From contig JAPKHH010000004.1 in assembly GCA_026647025.1 (NCBI GenBank), forward strand, positions 12,743-76,742: a stretch of 64,000 nucleotides of DNA, in the 5' to 3' direction. A program made the position numbers and the translations under genes. Positions 28,137 to 37,136 of this stretch are shown piece after piece. The notes below the pieces were generated by a model. It was not told the origin of the DNA. It saw only the letters and a list, made by a program, of their open reading frames with translations, and ran no database searches. This DNA comes from Giesbergeria sp. Lineage in GTDB: Bacteria > Pseudomonadota > Gammaproteobacteria > Burkholderiales > Burkholderiaceae_C. Positions within the stretch are counted from its first letter, which is position 1. Each line of letters opens with the position of its first letter.

Positions 28137-29147
28137 TCACAACGCAGGCGACAGCCGGGGGGAACGCACCAGAACGGGAATACCCAGCAGCACCGCCAGC
28201 AGCAGCGCCGCTGCCATGTTGTGGGCGAGAGCCGCCGCCAGTGGCAGGCCCAGCGTGACCAGTGCCACCCCCAGCCCGATCTGCGCTGCCAGCAAAGCCA
28301 AAAGCAAGAGTGCGGCAACGCGCAGCCCACCGCGCCAGGCGAAAGCGGCCAGCGGCAGCAGGACGGCCACCACCACCAGTCCGCCGACGCGGTGCAGTAC
28401 ATGCACCCACGCGCCGGCCGGGTGGTTCGGCAGCGCGGCGTTGGTCTGAGGCTCCGCCCAGGGATTGAAGGCGTCCCAGGAGCCAGCGCTCAGGTCGCAG
28501 CCCGTCAGTCCGGTGCAGCTCAGGCCGGCCTGTCCCGCGCTGACCAGCCCACCCAGCGCCACCTGCGCCAGCAAGAGCGCGGCGCCCAGCCAGGCCCAGC
28601 GGGCCAGGCGCGGTGGTGGACCACCGGGGATGGAATCCAGGCGGCCGGTCAGCGCCATCCGCACGCTCACCGCGAACATGACAAAGCCCCCCAGCAGGTT
28701 GCCCAGGGTGACGGCGGGAATGCGGGCATGGGCCGTCCAGCGCCCGAGCACCGCCAGAAAAAGCGCCAGCCCGAGCAAGCCCAGGGCCAGCCGCCCCTGG
28801 GGCCACAACACCGGCCGGGACGCCACCGCCGCCATCACCATGACCAGCACCAGCAAAAGCGCCGACGAGGCGATCACCCGGTGCGCCAGCCGCGCACCGG
28901 CGGTAGCGGCATCGGCTTGCAGGGGCGGCTCGCCCTGCTGTTGAGCGCGCCACTGCTGCCCGTAGCACTGGGGCCAGGGCTCGCAGCCCAGGCCTGCCTT
29001 GGACAGGCGGATATAGGCGCTCAGGCTGGTGATGGCCAGCACCAGCACGGCGCAGATCCAGGCCATGCGCCGCAGCAAAAGCACCCGCCGCTGGACCGGG
29101 TCCGCCGGAGAGGAAAGAAGAGAGGGAGGCATGGCAGGGAGGTTCAT
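28137..29147 (-). CDS. ctaA: Divergent heme A synthase (COX15/CtaA family)
   Basis: GLGCEPWPQC, AHR, GLSCTGLTGC, VLHR, AHN; ~8 TM; divergent from the oxidase operon. Confidence 0.78.
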   Translation of the reverse strand: MNLPAMPPSLLSSPADPVQRRVLLLRRMAWICAVLVLAITSLSAYIRLSKAGLGCEPWPQCYGQQWRAQQQGEPPLQADAATAGARLAHRVIASSALLLVLVMVMAAVASRPVLWPQGRLALGLLGLALFLAVLGRWTAHARIPAVTLGNLLGGFVMFAVSVRMALTGRLDSIPGGPPPRLARWAWLGAALLLAQVALGGLVSAGQAGLSCTGLTGCDLSAGSWDAFNPWAEPQTNAALPNHPAGAWVHVLHRVGGLVVVAVLLPLAAFAWRGGLRVAALLLLALLAAQIGLGVALVTLGLPLAAALAHNMAAALLLAVLLGIPVLVRSPRLSPAL

Positions 29148-29542: not shown

Positions 29543-30082
29543 ATGAGCGCCATTCTTCCCCCCTCAGAGCGGTTGTGGTGGAAACACCCGCTGGACCGTC
29601 TCGAAGCCGTCTGGATTGTCATCGCCTTCATCTGGTGCATGGTCATGTTCTTCATGATGGTTTTCTGGCATGTCTACGGCAAGCAGAACCTTGCGACCGA
29701 GACCTACAAGACCACACCCGACAAGTTCACCGCCGCCACCCAGGCCATGGTGGACAAGTACACCGTCCGCACGGAAACCGACCAGAACATTCCGGTGGTG
29801 CGTCCGCCCGAGGGCAGCGACATCTACCTGATTGGCCGCCTGTGGAACTGGTGGCCGATTCTGGAACTGGAAAAAAACAAATCCTACAAGTTGCACCTGA
29901 CCTCGATGGACTACAACCACGGTTTCTCGCTTCAGCCCACCAACATCAACATCCAGGTGGTGCCAGGATATGAGCACGTGATCAAGGTCACGCCCAACGA
30001 GTCCGGCACTTTTTCCATCATCTGCAACGAATTTTGCGGAATCAACCACCACACCATGGTGGGCCGCATGTACGTGAAGTAG
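29543..30082 (+). CDS. Heme-copper oxidase subunit II (B-family type, one TM, CuA)
   Basis: DYNHGF and CNEFCGINHHTM CuA ligands; WNWWP. Confidence 0.92.
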   Translation: MSAILPPSERLWWKHPLDRLEAVWIVIAFIWCMVMFFMMVFWHVYGKQNLATETYKTTPDKFTAATQAMVDKYTVRTETDQNIPVVRPPEGSDIYLIGRLWNWWPILELEKNKSYKLHLTSMDYNHGFSLQPTNINIQVVPGYEHVIKVTPNESGTFSIICNEFCGINHHTMVGRMYVK

Positions 30083-30095
30083 CAGGAGCACCGAC

Positions 30096-31793
30096 ATGAC
30101 TGCAACCACTTACCGTACCTGCCCGCGCTCGGGCCTGCAATTCGAATCCCAGGCGGAAAAGCTGATGATCGCCAATGCCGTCGCCGCCGTCGTGGCGCTG
30201 CTGGTCGGCGGTCTCCTGGCCATTGGTGTCGTGCTGACCCGCTGGCCCGCCGTGCACTGGCTGGCGGCCGACACTTTCTACATGGTGCTCACGGCACACG
30301 GCATCGACATGCTGATCTTCTGGATCATCTTCTTCGAAGTCGCAGTGCTGTATTTCGCCTCGTCGACACTCTTGCGGTGCCGCATTGCCACACCCAAGAT
30401 CGCCTGGGCGGCCTTCGCACTGATGCTGATCGGCGCGGTGATGAACAACCTGACGGTGTTCCAGGGCGGCTCCAGCGTCATGATGACCTCGTACGTGCCC
30501 ATGATGGCGTCGTCGTGGTTCTACCTGGGCCTCATCCTGTTCGCCGTCGGCGCCCTGATTGCGTGTTTTGTGTTTTTCGGCACGCTGGTGGTCGCCAAGC
30601 GCGAAAAAACCTACGAAGGCTCGGTGCCCCTGGTGACGTTTGGCGCCATCACGGCCGCCATCATCGCGGTGTTCACCATTGCCTCCGGCGCGATCATCCT
30701 GATCCCCACCTACATGATGGCCATTGGCCTCATCAGTGAAGTCGATCCGTTGATCTACCGCACCATCTGGTGGGCTTTCGGGCACTCGTCGCAGCAAATC
30801 AACGTGGCAGCGCACATCTCGATCTGGTATGCCGTGGCGGCCATCGCCTTCGGTGCCAAGCCCATGTCCGAGCGCGTCAGCCGTGGCGCCTTCCTGCTGT
30901 ACATCCTGTTCCTGCAGCTTGCCAGTGCCCACCACCTGTTGGCCGACCCCGGCATCAGCACCGAGTGGAAAGTGGTGAACACCAGCTACTTCATGTACTT
31001 CGCCGTGCTGGCTTCGATGATCCATGCGCTGTCCATTCCGGGCGCCATGGAGGTGGCCCAGCGTGCCAAGGGCTACAACAAGGGCCTGTTTGAATGGCTG
31101 CGCAAGGCGCCCTGGGGCAACCCTGCTTTTTCGGGCGTGTTCATCTCGCTCGTGGGCTTCGGCTTCCTCGGTGGCATCTCCGGCGTGATGATGGGTACCG
31201 AACAGCTCAACCTGCTGATCCACAACACCATCTACGTGCCGGGCCACTTCCACGCCACCGTGGTGATTGGTACCACGCTGACCTTCATGGCCCTGACGTA
31301 CTTCCTGATTCCTGTGCTGTTCCGGCGCGAGATGATCTCGCCCGGTCTGGCCAAGATCCAGCCGTACCTCTTCGGCTTCTCGATGTACTTCTTCTGCCTG
31401 GTGATGATGGGCGCCGGTACGCTGGGCGTTTCCCGTCGGCACTGGGACATGGCCTTCAGTGGCGCGGCCCTGGCCTATGAATGGCCCGGCGCGGCGTATC
31501 TGATGATGGGTCTGGTCGGTATCGGGGGGATTGCCGCCATCGTGGGTGGCGGCATCTACATCTACGTCACGGTGGGCTCCATCTTGTGGGGCAAGAAGCT
31601 CGATACCGGCGTCGTGAGCCCCAAGTTCACCCCGGTGGGACGGGCTGCACCCACAGCCGCCGCACAGACCTATGGCTCTGCAGGGTTCGTGGCTCCTGGC
31701 ACCTTCGTGCTGGCCATGTTCTTCCTGGTGTCCTTCGTGCTGTACTACTTCATCAACTGGAAGTACCTGGGCCAGCTCTGGGGCCTGAGCTAA
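30096..31793 (+). CDS. Heme-copper superfamily subunit I with Tyr->Gln; probable eNOR-type nitric oxide reductase
   Basis: TAHG (helix II), GHSSQQIN (helix VI, H+4 = Q rather than Y), SAHHLL (helix VII), GHFHAT (helix X). Confidence 0.78.
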   Translation: MTATTYRTCPRSGLQFESQAEKLMIANAVAAVVALLVGGLLAIGVVLTRWPAVHWLAADTFYMVLTAHGIDMLIFWIIFFEVAVLYFASSTLLRCRIATPKIAWAAFALMLIGAVMNNLTVFQGGSSVMMTSYVPMMASSWFYLGLILFAVGALIACFVFFGTLVVAKREKTYEGSVPLVTFGAITAAIIAVFTIASGAIILIPTYMMAIGLISEVDPLIYRTIWWAFGHSSQQINVAAHISIWYAVAAIAFGAKPMSERVSRGAFLLYILFLQLASAHHLLADPGISTEWKVVNTSYFMYFAVLASMIHALSIPGAMEVAQRAKGYNKGLFEWLRKAPWGNPAFSGVFISLVGFGFLGGISGVMMGTEQLNLLIHNTIYVPGHFHATVVIGTTLTFMALTYFLIPVLFRREMISPGLAKIQPYLFGFSMYFFCLVMMGAGTLGVSRRHWDMAFSGAALAYEWPGAAYLMMGLVGIGGIAAIVGGGIYIYVTVGSILWGKKLDTGVVSPKFTPVGRAAPTAAAQTYGSAGFVAPGTFVLAMFFLVSFVLYYFINWKYLGQLWGLS

Positions 31794-31808: not shown

Positions 31809-32708
31809 ATGCACACCACCACGATCCATCCCGCCGGGCGCAGTGCGGCACAGTGGACGCGCGACGTCATCTCGCTGTTCAAGCTGCGCATCGGTGTGCT
31901 GATCATGATTACGGCGCTCGTGGGCATGGCGGTCTCGCCAGGCCCGGCGCCCAGTCTGGTGCAGGTGCTCGTGCTTGCGCTGTCGGTGCTGATCGCGTCC
32001 GCCAGCGCAGGTGCGTTCAACCAGTATGTCGAGCACGAGAGCGATCGCCTGATGGCACGCACGCGCAAGCGGGCCTTTGCCACCGGGGCGCTGCCCCACC
32101 ATCCCGCCTGGCTGGCCCTGATGGCCGTGCTGCTGGCGGGGGCGGTGGCATCGGCCTGGCTGGTGCTCAACGCAGCGGCTGCGCTGTATGTGTTTCTGGG
32201 CGCCTTTTTCTACGGAGTGGTCTACACCCTGTGGCTCAAGCGGCGCACGGCGCTCAACATCGTGATCGGGGGGTTGGCAGGCAGCTTTGCCGTGCTGGCC
32301 GGGGCTGCCGCCATTGACCCGACTCTGGGCCCACTGCCCGTGCTGCTGGCCTTGGTGTTGTTCCTGTGGACGCCACCGCATTTCTGGAGCCTGGCAATCG
32401 CCAACAAGGCCGACTATGCGCAGGCGGGCGTGCCCATGCTGCCGGTCGTCGTGGGCACCGAGCGCGCTGCGCACATCGTTCTGGGCAGCACGGTGGCATT
32501 GTTCGTGGCTTCGCTGCTGCCGCTGGGATTTGGCGCCGGCCCGGTGTACGCCGTGGGCGCCCTGGTGGGGGGGCTGCACTTTGTGCACAAGTCGTGGCTT
32601 CTGGTAGCCCAGCCCAGCCGCGCCACCGCCATGGGTTCGTTCTTCGCTTCGCTGATCCAGCTCAGTTTGTTGCTGGTGGCGGCGTGCATCGACGCTTTCA
32701 TGCGCTAG
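31809..32708 (+). CDS. ctaB: Protoheme IX farnesyltransferase (heme O synthase)
   Basis: LFKLRI, FNQYVEHESDRLMARTRKR, YTLWLKRRT, FLWTPPHFWSL. Confidence 0.93.
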   Translation: MHTTTIHPAGRSAAQWTRDVISLFKLRIGVLIMITALVGMAVSPGPAPSLVQVLVLALSVLIASASAGAFNQYVEHESDRLMARTRKRAFATGALPHHPAWLALMAVLLAGAVASAWLVLNAAAALYVFLGAFFYGVVYTLWLKRRTALNIVIGGLAGSFAVLAGAAAIDPTLGPLPVLLALVLFLWTPPHFWSLAIANKADYAQAGVPMLPVVVGTERAAHIVLGSTVALFVASLLPLGFGAGPVYAVGALVGGLHFVHKSWLLVAQPSRATAMGSFFASLIQLSLLLVAACIDAFMR

Positions 32709-32728: not shown

Positions 32729-33586
32729 ATGCACGCCACAGAACGTATTTCAGCACTGTCTGGGGCCGTGCTGTGTCTGTTCCTTGTTCTGTTGGCGCCA
32801 GCTGTCGTGCAGGCCTCGTCCCACGGGTCTGATCTGGGGTTGGACCGGGAGCAGGCACTGCGCACCAGCCAAGCTGCGTTGGGCCGCAAGATCGCTGACC
32901 ATACCCTGCTGGACCGTGAAGGTCGACCGGTCCGGCTTTCTTCCTACCGGGGCAAACCGCTGCTGGTCAGTTTCATCTACACCGGGTGCTTCCAGGTGTG
33001 CCCGACCACCACGCGGTCGTTGCAGGAAACGGTCGAGGGCTTGCAAAAGACCTTTGGCACCAACCAGTTCAACGTGGTGAGCATCGGTTTCAACCAGCCC
33101 GATGATTCGCCCCAGGCGCTCAAGGCGTTTGCCGCCCAATACCGCATCCATCAGCCCAGCTGGGAATTCTTGAGCCCCTCCATGGCTACCGTGGGGCCGC
33201 TGGCCCGTGATTTTGGGTTTGTCTACGAAGCCACTCCGGCGGGCTTCGACCATGTGCTGCAGGTGTCGCTGGTCGATGCGCAGGGGCGCATCGTGCGGCA
33301 GGTCTACGGGGAGAGCATTCGACCGGGCGATATCGGCGAACCCCTGAAACTGCTGCTCAACGGCACGCCGGTTGAGCCTTCCCTGGCGTTGGAAAGTCTG
33401 ATGGACCGTGTGCGCATCCTGTGCACGGTGTACGACCCCAAGACGGGCCAGTACCGGGTGGACTACACCCTGCCTATCCAGATTGCTGGGGGCATCACCT
33501 TTCTGATCGCCATGCTGGTGTTCTTTCTCAACGAGTGGCGCTCTGTACGGCGCAGTGCCCGCAACAAGGAGGCGCGCCGCGCCTGA
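32729..33586 (+). CDS. SCO-family copper chaperone with C-terminal TM extension
   Basis: FIYTGCFQVCP (CxxxC), FDH; signal peptide; C-terminal TM. Confidence 0.88.
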   Translation: MHATERISALSGAVLCLFLVLLAPAVVQASSHGSDLGLDREQALRTSQAALGRKIADHTLLDREGRPVRLSSYRGKPLLVSFIYTGCFQVCPTTTRSLQETVEGLQKTFGTNQFNVVSIGFNQPDDSPQALKAFAAQYRIHQPSWEFLSPSMATVGPLARDFGFVYEATPAGFDHVLQVSLVDAQGRIVRQVYGESIRPGDIGEPLKLLLNGTPVEPSLALESLMDRVRILCTVYDPKTGQYRVDYTLPIQIAGGITFLIAMLVFFLNEWRSVRRSARNKEARRA

Positions 33587-33601: not shown

Positions 33602-35188
33602 ATGCCCTTGCCTGGTTCAGCCTTTGTTTCCAAAGGATCTCCTGTTTCGCTGACGCTTCCGCCGGTTCCCCGCAGTGCGGCCCTCTACCGGGCCGTGGAA
33701 CATTCCTTTGACGTACCGTTCGGGGCGGCGCTGAACCCGCTCAAACATCTGGGGGCCCTCGGTTTCCTGTTTTTCTGGCTGCTGGTCGTCACGGGGGTGG
33801 TGCTCTACATCGTGCTCGACACCTCGGTCGGGGGCGCGTACCAATCCATCAACGATCTGGCCCAGGTGCCCTGGATGCTGGGCGTCATGCTGCGCGGCGT
33901 GCACCGCTACGCCGCCGATGGCTTTGTGATCGTCATGTTCGCCCATCTCCTGCGGGAATGGATGCTGGGCCGGTTCAAGGGTTTTCGCCGTGTTCCCTGG
34001 CTGACAGGTGTGCCCCTGGTTGCCCTGGCCTTTGTCAGTGCGATTGGAGGCTTCTGGCTCAACTGGGACCGCCTGGGCCAGTTTTCGGCTGTGTCCACGG
34101 CCGAGTGGCTCGATACCTTGCCGTTCCTGGCGTCGCCCCTGGCGCGCAATTTTCTGGGCGGCGTCAGTCTGAATGCGCGGCTGTTCACCCTGTTCGTTTT
34201 CGTGCATCTGGGTGTGCCGCTGCTGATGGTGTTTGCCCTGTGGTTTCATATCCAGCGCATCAGCCTCGCACGGGTTTTTCCGCCGCGTGCCTTGGCCTGG
34301 GGCACGCTGGCCATGCTGCTGTTGCTTTCACTGGTCCTTCCGGTGCGCAGCCAGGGGCCGGCCGACCTGATGTCGGTGCCCGTTTCCTTGTCACTGGACT
34401 GGTTCTTGTTGTTCATCCACCCCTTGATCGACGCTACTTCGGCGCAAGCGGTGTGGGCGCTCGTGGCCATGGTTTTCGCCGGATTGATACTGTTGCCGTT
34501 CACCCCCGTGCGCGCCGAACCCGTGGCCGTGGTGAACCCCGACCATTGCAGCGGCTGCAGCCGCTGTTTTGCCGACTGTCCCTATTCCGCCATTACGATG
34601 GTGCCCCACCCCAACGGGCGGCGGGGCATGCAACTGGCCGAAGTGCGTGCCGACCTGTGCGCCAGCTGTGGCATCTGTGTCGGCTCCTGCCCGTCTTCCA
34701 CGCCGTTTCGCAGTACCGAGGTACTGCACACCGGCATCGACATGCCGCAGTGGCCCATCGACGACTTGCGCGCCCGTTTGTTGCAGGGCCTGGCTGCCAT
34801 GCCGGGGCCGCGCAGGCTGGTGGTTTTTGGCTGCGATCAGGGCCAGCGCAGCCGCATGGGCGCGCCGGATGTCCTGCATCTGGGCATGGTGTGTGCAGGC
34901 ATGCTGCCGCCTTCCTTTGTCGAGTACGCATTGCGCGGAGGTGCCGACGGCGTGCTCATCAACGGCTGCCGCGAGGGGGGCTGTGAATTCCGCCTGGGCC
35001 AACGCTGGACACAGCAGCGCCTGAACGGTGAGCGCGAGCCGCATCTGCGCACCTCCGTGCCGGCCGAACGCTGGCGTGTCGTCTGGACCGACCCGGGCGA
35101 TGAAAGCCAGCTGGTATCCGCCCTTGAAGACATGCGCACGCATTGCGCACCCGGCGCACCTCACCCATTTTTGGAGAACACCCCATGA
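33602..35188 (+). CDS. Cytochrome b / 2x[4Fe-4S] ferredoxin / MvhD-FlpD-like [2Fe-2S] fusion protein
   Basis: GVHRYAADGFVIVMFAH and FVHLG...WFH (four heme b His); LDWF; CSGCSRCFADCP; CASCGICVGSCP; FGC...CAGM...GCREGGCEF. Start codon uncertain. Confidence 0.85.
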   Translation: MPLPGSAFVSKGSPVSLTLPPVPRSAALYRAVEHSFDVPFGAALNPLKHLGALGFLFFWLLVVTGVVLYIVLDTSVGGAYQSINDLAQVPWMLGVMLRGVHRYAADGFVIVMFAHLLREWMLGRFKGFRRVPWLTGVPLVALAFVSAIGGFWLNWDRLGQFSAVSTAEWLDTLPFLASPLARNFLGGVSLNARLFTLFVFVHLGVPLLMVFALWFHIQRISLARVFPPRALAWGTLAMLLLLSLVLPVRSQGPADLMSVPVSLSLDWFLLFIHPLIDATSAQAVWALVAMVFAGLILLPFTPVRAEPVAVVNPDHCSGCSRCFADCPYSAITMVPHPNGRRGMQLAEVRADLCASCGICVGSCPSSTPFRSTEVLHTGIDMPQWPIDDLRARLLQGLAAMPGPRRLVVFGCDQGQRSRMGAPDVLHLGMVCAGMLPPSFVEYALRGGADGVLINGCREGGCEFRLGQRWTQQRLNGEREPHLRTSVPAERWRVVWTDPGDESQLVSALEDMRTHCAPGAPHPFLENTP

Positions 35189-35688
35189 ACCGAGCCCTCA
35201 ACTGGACAGGGCAAGCCCTGCTCTATGGCAGTTTTGCCCTGGTAGTCGGCGTCTTCTCGCGCTGGCCCAGCTACCATCCTCTGGCGCCGAACGAGGCGCA
35301 GATCAAGGTCAGCTTCATTCACCATGGTGCGCGGATTGCCGAATGCCGCCCCTACACGGCCGAGGAACTGTCCAAACTGGCGCCGAACATGCGCGCGCCC
35401 ATGAAATGCGAACGAGAGCGCTCGCCGGTGCGCATCGAGGTCGAGGTCGATGGCGTGTCCGTCTATGCCCACACGGCCACGCCCTCGGGCTTCTCGCGCG
35501 ACGGTGCCTCCACGGTGTACCAGCGACTCAATGTTCCCTCGGGTGAACATCGCATCACTGTGCGCATGAAAGACAACATGAAGTCGCCCGACTTCCCGTA
35601 TGTGCACGACTCCACCGTCACACTGCAACCCGCGCAGGTCATGGTGATCGACTTCAACCCGGACAAAGGGGAGATCGTTCTGCTATGA
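35185..35688 (+). CDS. Hypothetical membrane-anchored protein with a probable periplasmic beta domain and a Cys pair
   Basis: ATGA-coupled to both neighbours; one N-terminal TM; ECRPY...MKCERERSP. Confidence 0.78.
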   Translation: MNRALNWTGQALLYGSFALVVGVFSRWPSYHPLAPNEAQIKVSFIHHGARIAECRPYTAEELSKLAPNMRAPMKCERERSPVRIEVEVDGVSVYAHTATPSGFSRDGASTVYQRLNVPSGEHRITVRMKDNMKSPDFPYVHDSTVTLQPAQVMVIDFNPDKGEIVLL

Positions 35689-37136
35689 GTGCACTGCCCT
35701 CTCACATGCTTGGCGTGCATGCCGCCGCAGGCCGCCCGTTGCCCGCAGCGATGCCGGGGCTGGACTATGAGCTCACGGTGCCGCAGGACGCCCGGCAGGC
35801 CCTGGCGCGTGGATGGCTCTGGCTGGGTCTTTTGGCGCTGGTGGGTTCGGGACTGTTTTCCATCCTGCTGGTGCTCTCGCGCACGCCGTACGTCAACCAG
35901 TGGTTGCCTGCGGCCAATTTTTTCCAGGTCTCGCTGGTGCTGCATGTCGATTTGTCGGTGCTGGTGTGGTTCGTGGCCCAAGGGGGCATGCTCTGGAGCA
36001 TTCACGGCACCCGGCGCGGCACGCACTGGGGCTGGCTGGCGCTGGCGGTGGCCGCAGTCGGCACATTGGCCATGGCCTTGGCGCCGTTTCTGAACCGGGG
36101 CGATCCCGTCATGGCCAACTACATCCCGGTGCTGGATTCGCCGCTGTTTCTGGGCGGCCTGGTCGTGTTCGGCGCGGGCACGGCTCTGCTGGTACTGCGC
36201 AGCCTGCTGGTCGCGCCCCGGCTGGGACTGGAGTACGACGGCCGCGGTGCGCTGGATTTTGGTCTGAGCAGCGCAGCCATTGCCACGGCCGTCGGTCTGC
36301 TGGCCTTTGCATGGTCCTATGCCGTGCTGCCGACCGCGCTGCATGGCAAGGCCTACTACGAAATCCTGTTCTGGGGCGGTGGCCACGCCTTGCAGTTCAC
36401 CTGGACCTTGCTCATGCTGGTGGGCTGGCTCTGGCTGGCCAGCGCCTGTGGTGCGCGCGTGCCCCTGAGCCCGCGCGTGGTGGTGCTCATGTTCGCGCTG
36501 GCCCTGGTGGGCGTCTTCATCACGCCCTATGCCTACCTGGCGCATGACATCACCTCGGTGGAGCACCGCAATCTGCTGACCTGGGCCATGCGGGCCGGTG
36601 GTGGACCGGCCATCGTGCCGGTGGGCCTGGCCGTGGTCTATGCCATCGCCACCACGCGGCTGGACAGCGACACCCTGCGCCCGCTGCGTGCCGCGCTGCT
36701 GGCATCGGTGCTGTTGTTTGCCGCTGGCGGGGTGATCGGCATCTTTATCCAGGGGAGCAATGTGCGCATTCCCGCGCACTACCATGGCTGCATTGTCGGG
36801 GTCACGCTGGCGCTCATGGGCGTGGTCTACAAGACCTTGCCGGCGCTGGGCTACCGTGCGCCCCAGGGGCGCCTGGCCACCTACCAGCCCTGGCTGTACG
36901 GTGCGGGTCAACTCATGCACATCATCGGGCTGGTCTGGTCGGGTGGCTACGGTGTGCAGCGCAAGGTGGCCGGTGCCGAGCAGGTGCTGCGCAGCACGGC
37001 CGAGGTGGCCGGCATGGGCCTGATGGGCCTGGGCGGGCTGATCGCCATCATCGGCGGACTGCTGTTCGTGGTGGTGGTGGTCCAGGCCATGCGACATACG
37101 CCCGCTGCGGCGGGCTCCAACGGGACGACACGATGA
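35685..37136 (+). CDS. Heme-copper subunit I paralogue lacking the helix VII His-His (CuB/FeB) pair
   Basis: LHVD (helix II), FWGGGHALQF (helix VI), PAHYHG (helix X); ~12 TM; no HH dipeptide in the protein. Confidence 0.75.
   Translation: MSALPSHMLGVHAAAGRPLPAAMPGLDYELTVPQDARQALARGWLWLGLLALVGSGLFSILLVLSRTPYVNQWLPAANFFQVSLVLHVDLSVLVWFVAQGGMLWSIHGTRRGTHWGWLALAVAAVGTLAMALAPFLNRGDPVMANYIPVLDSPLFLGGLVVFGAGTALLVLRSLLVAPRLGLEYDGRGALDFGLSSAAIATAVGLLAFAWSYAVLPTALHGKAYYEILFWGGGHALQFTWTLLMLVGWLWLASACGARVPLSPRVVVLMFALALVGVFITPYAYLAHDITSVEHRNLLTWAMRAGGGPAIVPVGLAVVYAIATTRLDSDTLRPLRAALLASVLLFAAGGVIGIFIQGSNVRIPAHYHGCIVGVTLALMGVVYKTLPALGYRAPQGRLATYQPWLYGAGQLMHIIGLVWSGGYGVQRKVAGAEQVLRSTAEVAGMGLMGLGGLIAIIGGLLFVVVVVQAMRHTPAAAGSNGTTR

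Follow-up and report, generated by a model that had tools for sequence, protein, structure and literature searches.

A subunit I paralogue of the haem-copper oxidoreductases that keeps its haem ligands and lacks the CuB/FeB site, encoded in an eNOR-type operon of Giesbergeria sp.

The described families of haem-copper oxidoreductases (HCO) all keep three histidine ligands for the second metal, with the exception of gNOR, in which one is swapped and which was the first family found to replace any active-site histidine (Murali et al. 2024, PMC11214002). The same work describes eNOR, sNOR, gNOR and nNOR, and reports that eNOR uses a modified haem a and that many of its operons contain CtaA, the haem A synthase. 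The route by which haem a passes from CtaA to subunit I, and the electron donor of bacterial CtaA, are still unresolved (PMC9145763; bioRxiv 10.1101/2020.03.01.968255). In the eNOR operon of Ferrigenium straubiae, an extra COX1-like gene (IMG 2878407321, K02274) encodes a product that was detected in the proteome and named “eNOR scaffold protein of unknown function”, and two cytochrome b fusions were noted in the same study (Becker et al., 2026 preprint, bioRxiv 10.64898/2026.01.22.701106). Here we describe a gene in a comparable setting, found in a 64,000-nucleotide stretch of Giesbergeria sp. DNA (GenBank assembly GCA_026647025.1, contig JAPKHH010000004.1, positions 12,743 to 76,742; hereafter the window). 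The gene occupies positions 35685 to 37136 of the forward strand, and its product, which we call HCOx, is an HCO subunit I paralogue without the CuB/FeB site.

The HCOx frame is uninterrupted and translates into 483 residues. The COX1 model PF00115 matches residues 42–439 (E = 3.4e-13; 49.7 bits against a cut-off of 34.8), none of the NCBIfam models matches, and a single-sequence phmmer search of the PDB returned no match. A PDB search with a family profile built from 110 diverse relatives retrieved subunit I of the T. thermophilus ba3 oxidase (E = 7e-20). The AlphaFold2 model, calculated with the alignment of these 110 relatives as input, consists of twelve long helices, with a pLDDT of 91.6 and a pTM of 0.92. 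A Foldseek search with this model returned the subunit I chains of ba3, aa3, cbb3 and nitric oxide reductases (NOR) as top matches, with query-relative TM-scores of approximately 0.6–0.74, and of 0.67–0.73 for ba3. Judged by its predicted subunit I fold, HCOx is a genuine member of the HCO superfamily. The feature is not a product of chance, because the COX1 score lies above the cut-off and the family counts 1,509 representatives at 50% identity.

To assign ligand positions, the protein was aligned with T. thermophilus ba3 using a HMMER profile, and with 65 orthologues of the eNOR-type subunit I encoded upstream in the window using hhalign (probability 100%, E = 2.6e-45 for the HCOx profile against the eNOR subunit I family). 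The correspondence with eNOR is as follows:

HCOx H87, eNOR H68: helix II haem ligand
HCOx G233-H234, eNOR G229-H230: helix VI metal ligand (CuB/FeB)
HCOx Q237, eNOR Q233: first Gln of the QQ motif
HCOx F238, eNOR Q234: position of the cross-link Tyr
HCOx A283/Y284, eNOR H279/H280: helix VII metal ligands
HCOx H365/H367, eNOR H384/H386: helix X haem ligands
HCOx R426/K427, eNOR R447/R448: haem-propionate pair

The helix II, VI and X histidines noticed in an earlier, sequence-only reading of this DNA are all present in the translation, as H87 (LVLHVDL), H234 (GGGHALQF) and H365 with H367 (PAHYHG). The alignments make H87 and H367 the ligands of the low-spin haem and H365 that of the high-spin haem; a bis-His low-spin site and the proximal high-spin histidine therefore appear, by sequence, to be retained together. 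Among the three histidines that bind CuB or FeB, H234 alone is kept. The HMMER alignment places the HH pair of ba3 (H282/H283) at Y284/L285, one residue later than hhalign does, and histidine is absent from the helix VII metal positions under both alignments. The same reading had stated that no HH dipeptide occurs, which is borne out across the full 483-residue translation. Its assignment of helix VII to the motif TWAMRAGGG has to be corrected: in the model helix VII spans residues 263–286 and helix VIII residues 292–305, the motif (residues 299–307) opens helix VIII, and the HH equivalents are A283/Y284 or Y284/L285.

The features that accompany the metal site in catalytic relatives are missing as well. 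F238 occupies the His+4 position of the tyrosine that is cross-linked in A-, B- and C-type O2 reductases, the proton channel of these enzymes is not present, and no relocated cross-link tyrosine was identified in HCOx. In the eNOR family the six histidines, Q233/Q234, Y245 and S307/H310/T313 are all invariant. The HCOx positions opposite Y245 (position 249) and opposite S307/H310/T313 (positions 310, 313 and 316) are apolar and variable, and therefore no K-channel-like path is left. HCOx likewise departs from eNOR itself, which is defined by a Gln at the tyrosine position, three metal histidines and a CuA-carrying subunit II. No alternative ligands that could make up a normal binuclear site were identified, though T299 and M302 are conserved nearby; equating these two residues with the threonine in contact with a CuB ligand of A-family oxidases was dropped, since the two alignments disagree by one to two residues in this region. 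Alignments, family conservation and the fold model together support the proposal, already made in the sequence-only reading, of a protein that has the HCO fold and two haems and lacks a binuclear centre, with haem binding being predicted from the conserved ligands.

The ligand pattern is a property of a large family. A word-indexed search with HCOx gave 4,893 matches, the closest of which come from Comamonas, Diaphorobacter, Alicycliphilus, [Acidovorax] ebreus, Castellaniella and Ramlibacter and are annotated as “cbb3-type cytochrome c oxidase subunit I”, a label that inflates oxidase counts in genome surveys. An exhaustive search gave the 1,509 representatives mentioned above, 631 of them below 1e-30. 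Over 119 diverse full-length representatives, Y146, W230, G233, H234 and G408 are invariant, and H87, H365, H367, N145, P148, E226, Q237, T299, M302, R426 and K427 are at least 92% conserved, with values of 97–99% for the three histidines H87, H365 and H367. Position 284 is Tyr in 62 and Phe in 19 of these sequences (Y/F in 81/119) and His in 9, and the HH-equivalent positions are hydrophobic or aromatic family-wide. In a maximum-likelihood tree all HCOx sequences fall into one clade (support 100/99), which is sister to eNOR subunit I with respect to the A-type and C-type/NOR paralogues (support 99/99); as the tree set holds no canonical B-family oxygen reductase, “sister to eNOR” means only “on the B-family side”. 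Strain-specific decay, which would have undone the earlier interpretation, is ruled out, the homologues having the same ligand pattern and lacking HH too. One Burkholderiales copy (G723:C2:44361-45332) carries two in-frame TGA codons and matches profile positions 88–408 only, and is probably a pseudogene in that lineage. By these residue patterns, HCOx is a paralogue under strong purifying selection, in which the haem pockets are kept and the metal site and channel are lost. Because a very large family has lost two metal histidines and kept both haem sites, the HCO scaffold would seem to have been reused beyond O2 and NO reduction.

HCOx lies in a cluster that comprises the following genes:

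28137 to 29147, minus strand: homologue of CtaA (haem A synthase; PF02628), divergent from the eNOR operon, second CtaA copy in the genome
29543 to 30082, plus strand: eNOR-type subunit II, a cupredoxin (COX2 domain)
30096 to 31793, plus strand: eNOR-type subunit I, with all six His ligands and helix VI motif GHSSQQ
31809 to 32708, plus strand: haem O synthase CtaB (TIGR01473, 260.6 bits, above cut-off)
32729 to 33586, plus strand: SCO1/SenC copper chaperone; the frame is open from 32366, with a likely start at the ATG at 32729
33602 to 35188, plus strand: cytochrome b fused to two [4Fe-4S] clusters and an FlpD/MvhD-like domain (cytochrome b/FeS fusion)
35185 to 35688, plus strand: small membrane-anchored protein of 167 residues starting at the ATG at 35185, with one transmembrane helix and a beta-sandwich
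35685 to 37136, plus strand: HCOx, 483 residues, twelve transmembrane helices
37133 to 39052, plus strand: N-terminal cytochrome b fused to [2Fe-2S] ferredoxin, FAD-binding and NAD(P)-binding domains (cytochrome b/FNR fusion)

ATGA overlaps join the last four genes. The cytochrome b N-terminal domains of the two fusions are paralogues of each other, and to our knowledge neither fusion architecture has a characterised precedent. HCOx thus stands as the extra COX1-like gene in an operon of eNOR, CtaB, Sco1 and cytochrome b fusions. The pair at 29543–31793, nominally “cytochrome c oxidase”, is on sequence grounds probably an NO reductase and not an O2 reductase, because its subunit I combines GHSSQQ with all six histidines; it has a Gln at the cross-link Tyr position, which is the eNOR signature (PMC8756737). 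Mislabelling it as an oxidase hides a capacity to produce N2O. The CtaA homologue scores 120 bits with PF02628; the copy that belongs to the aa3 cluster of contig C145 reaches 256 bits.

Over 80 GTDB loci, the order subunit II, subunit I (eNOR), CtaB, SCO, cytochrome b/FeS fusion, small protein, HCOx and cytochrome b/FNR fusion recurs, with the partners kept in 58–78 loci: the cytochrome b/FeS fusion in 78, the small protein in 76, the cytochrome b/FNR fusion in 72, SCO in 71, subunit I in 67, subunit II in 60 and CtaB in 58. The divergent CtaA was found at 39 of the 80, and an AraC/DJ-1 gene downstream of the operon at none of them. HCOx is present in 48 of 381 Burkholderiales genomes, 46 of which also encode an eNOR-type subunit I, usually 5–8 kb away on the same contig; none of the 381 has the eNOR-type subunit I without HCOx.

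In eNOR-type operons, or where the cytochrome b fusions are present, the gene immediately upstream of HCOx is nearly always that of the small protein. Its two cysteines are invariant, the invariant positions being S25, H46, C54, C75 and several Arg and Asp residues, and no Pfam or PDB relative was found for it. We considered whether it might be a degenerate cupredoxin subunit II, which was ruled out by an hhalign probability of 0.2% against subunit II; a search of the PDB by sequence gave no match, and the predicted model is a generic beta-sandwich without a match to subunit II. According to this model, the protein is a membrane-anchored beta-sandwich and not a degenerate subunit II.

Outside the Burkholderiales, HCOx is found fused to an N-terminal cytochrome b (P0122), to a C-terminal UbiA/CtaB domain (P0248) or to C-terminal TPR repeats. 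The CtaB-fused form and an unfused relative (L081, L095) both follow an eNOR-like subunit II/I pair, with CtaB adjacent or fused. In a sample of 401 Pseudomonadota genomes, CtaA directly adjoins HCOx at 14 of 29 short loci and 9 of 25 longer ones, and in Mariprofundaceae (L128, L129) the HCOx and CtaA genes overlap by 4 bp. At the Mariprofundus-like locus L129 a divergent cytochrome b561 (Ni_hydr_CYTB) gene stands beside this pair, with PAS, cNMP-binding regulator and lone cupredoxin genes nearby. The TPR-fused subfamily (L094, L132, L135, L140) directly follows genes for a multihaem cytochrome c of about 800 residues, ResB and CcsA, which suggests that Magnetococcales-like genomes have co-opted an HCO-fold protein for a module devoted to cytochrome c maturation; these loci are sometimes followed by a CcmH/CycH-type TPR protein. 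Among 80 metagenome loci centred on a distant HCOx member, at least one partner gene occurs in 60, CtaA or CtaB in 40, a cytochrome b fusion in 34 and the small protein in 35. A 1,542-residue frame (L145:5717-10345) has an HCOx domain near its C-terminus (residues ~1115–1499) and about 1,100 N-terminal residues without a Pfam match; this frame may be either a genuine fusion or an artefact of open reading frame calling.

The 401 genomes were searched separately for HCOx, CtaA and Surf1, the haem a insertion factor. The HCOx profile matched 95 genomes (one of which, G190, has only a weaker eNOR-type cross-hit), CtaA 270 and Surf1 184, and CtaA is present in 91 of the 95. Surf1 is encoded by 177 of the 179 CtaA-positive genomes that lack HCOx and by 6 of the 91 that have it, so that 268 of the 270 CtaA-positive genomes carry Surf1 or HCOx and 2 carry neither. 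The raw Fisher p value of 4e-60 should not be taken at face value, because few deep lineages carry the pattern: the genomes with HCOx and without Surf1 are mostly Mariprofundaceae (Zetaproteobacteria) and Magnetococcales, with a few others, and both genes occur together in the Giesbergeria genome, a family of Rickettsiales metagenome-assembled genomes and one other family. Repeating the Surf1 search at E ≤ 1 in 45 HCOx-positive genomes gave nothing above the Pfam cut-off. A hidden Surf1 in Mariprofundus was discarded as a candidate, the recurrent weak match being a TolA/TonB-type protein in a tolQR-ruvABC cluster. HCOx itself has no match to the Pfam SURF1 domain and does not belong to that family. 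The idea that it is an alternative haem A synthase replacing CtaA is weakened by the divergent CtaA upstream and by the CtaA genes of the 91 genomes. Inheritance of HCOx goes together with that of haem-a-dependent enzymes and of genes for haem O/A maturation, and in one subfamily of genes for haem c maturation.

The reading that we prefer, at about even confidence, is that HCOx is a haem-binding accessory factor that derives from an eNOR or B-family subunit I and serves in haem a/o delivery or redox poising rather than as a reductase. It would work in the handling of farnesylated haems. HCOx might take haem o or a from CtaB or CtaA and hold it or deliver it to the true subunit I, in the manner of Surf1; or it might maintain the proper redox state of that haem or of CtaA, with electrons coming from the two translationally coupled cytochrome b fusions, one of them NAD(P)H-linked. 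Its client in Giesbergeria would be the NO reductase of the eNOR type that is encoded 4 kb upstream. A haem-handling accessory role covers both the carrier and the redox helper, and the cytochrome b partners together with the conserved H234/Q237/T299/M302 cluster speak for at least one haem being an active redox cofactor. A more specific version, which we put forward only tentatively and consider doubtful, makes HCOx the missing partner of CtaA: a mimic of subunit I to which CtaA would hand haem a directly, for insertion into HCO subunit I. It would take the place of Surf1 in Zetaproteobacteria and Magnetococcales and act specifically for eNOR in Burkholderiales, and its resident haem would be kept reduced by the NAD(P)H-linked cytochrome b fusions. 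If true, this chain would be a bacterial counterpart of the mitochondrial electron chain Arh1-Yah1-Cox15.

Several points weigh against an accessory role in haem handling. A chaperone with twelve membrane helices and a bis-His haem would be unusual. The dedicated redox partners and the cytochrome b-HCOx fusion point to permanent, redox-active haems and not to cargo, and the strong conservation of H234, Q237, E226, T299 and M302 around the lost metal site suggests a chemistry of ligands or metals for which a passive carrier would have no use. The Giesbergeria genome carries Surf1 alongside HCOx, the complementarity between the two rests on few deep lineages and may reflect very few events, and divergent “SURF-similar” proteins that Pfam misses are known. 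Some HCOx genes lie in unrelated contexts, either amid housekeeping genes or in the arrangement pntAB-HCOx-IalB. A literature search found no functional study of any HCOx member. At the pntAB-type loci (L082–L084; pntAA-pntAB-pntB-HCOx-IalB), which belong to one lineage, the end of pntB and the start codon of HCOx overlap, and oxidase or haem genes are not nearby.

The sequence-only reading had offered four functions, among which the haem chaperone fits best, given the synteny and fusions with CtaA, CtaB, ResB and CcsA genes and the Surf1 complementarity; the electron wire stays viable through the cytochrome b fusions and the N-terminal fusion, and a new catalytic family and an NO sensor or buffer gained no positive support. 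As a wire, HCOx would be a permanent two-haem electron-transfer subunit of a respiratory supercomplex, carrying electrons from the NAD(P)H and Fe-S modules of the cytochrome b fusions to eNOR, or in reverse for NAD+ reduction, the latter being an idea of the Ferrigenium authors (bioRxiv 10.64898/2026.01.22.701106). The translational coupling to both fusions, their retention with HCOx at 72–78 of the 80 GTDB loci and 34 of the 80 metagenome loci, the natural fusion P0122 and the presence of all four proteins in the F. straubiae proteome speak for it. We nevertheless judge it unlikely, as many HCOx genes have no cytochrome b fusion or eNOR nearby and are paired with CtaA, CtaB or ResB/CcsA, as the CtaB fusion and the Surf1 complementarity would be left unexplained, and as eNOR already owns a CuA entry subunit.

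Less probable again is a haem-only catalyst, in which a five-coordinate haem with H234, Q237, T299 and M302 on its distal side performs small-molecule chemistry of its own, with NAD(P)H as the driving reductant and the cytochrome b fusions as its relay, for example making or supplying the oxidant that CtaA requires under near-anoxic denitrifying conditions, or detoxifying NO or O2. The residues at the former metal site are indeed nearly invariant, an NAD(P)H-linked partner is encoded, and the literature has raised the puzzle that haem A synthesis requires O2, yet eNOR is made under denitrifying conditions; proton-channel residues and a second metal site are nonetheless lacking, the superfamily offers no precedent, and many members have no reductase partner at all. 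A role as gas sensor or NO/O2 buffer, signalling to the eNOR system or protecting it, would draw on the potentially open haem site and the eNOR context only. HCOx has no output domain and no conserved regulator partner (the AraC/DJ-1 gene does not recur downstream), and its synteny is with biosynthetic and not regulatory genes, which makes this role very improbable. That HCOx is a functionless, decaying duplicate of eNOR subunit I would agree with the loss of catalytic ligands and with the Burkholderiales copy bearing two TGA codons, but is effectively refuted by conservation, with more than 1,500 clusters at 50% identity sharing invariant haem ligands in a monophyletic clade, along with a confident fold prediction and detection of the protein in F. 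straubiae.

The HCOx family is a concrete and genetically testable candidate for the questions of haem a transfer and of the CtaA electron donor, and it can be set beside five described systems. The F. straubiae operon resembles that of the window in encoding eNOR subunits II and I, haem o synthase, Sco1, two cytochrome b fusions and an extra “cytochrome c oxidase subunit I”; the preprint names this last protein and does not describe the loss of ligands, and we infer its orthology to HCOx from operon synteny (L038, L043 and L048 share the gene order). The eNOR subunit I, known from the Rhodothermus marinus enzyme (PMC11214002), is nearest to HCOx by profile and its sister in the tree, and shares the fold, the haem ligands, the propionate pair and the first Gln (Q237). 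HCOx differs from it in lacking the helix VII His pair, the Gln at the Tyr position (F238 instead), the K-channel-type residues, some 80 C-terminal residues and the cupredoxin partner. Subunit I of the B-family ba3 oxidase of T. thermophilus (PDB codes 1EHK and 3S8F) is the best match of solved structure by profile and fold, and HCOx has neither its CuB site nor its cross-linked Tyr and proton path. In gNOR one histidine is exchanged for Asp and the enzyme is thought to be still catalytic, whereas in HCOx two histidines have given way to residues that are not ligands. Surf1/Shy1, finally, is encoded like HCOx with ctaA, ctaB and cox genes, and very few of the 270 CtaA-positive genomes have both or neither of the two. 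They are not homologous, Surf1 having two transmembrane helices and a periplasmic domain and HCOx twelve helices of the dihaem type, and their likeness is one of distribution only.

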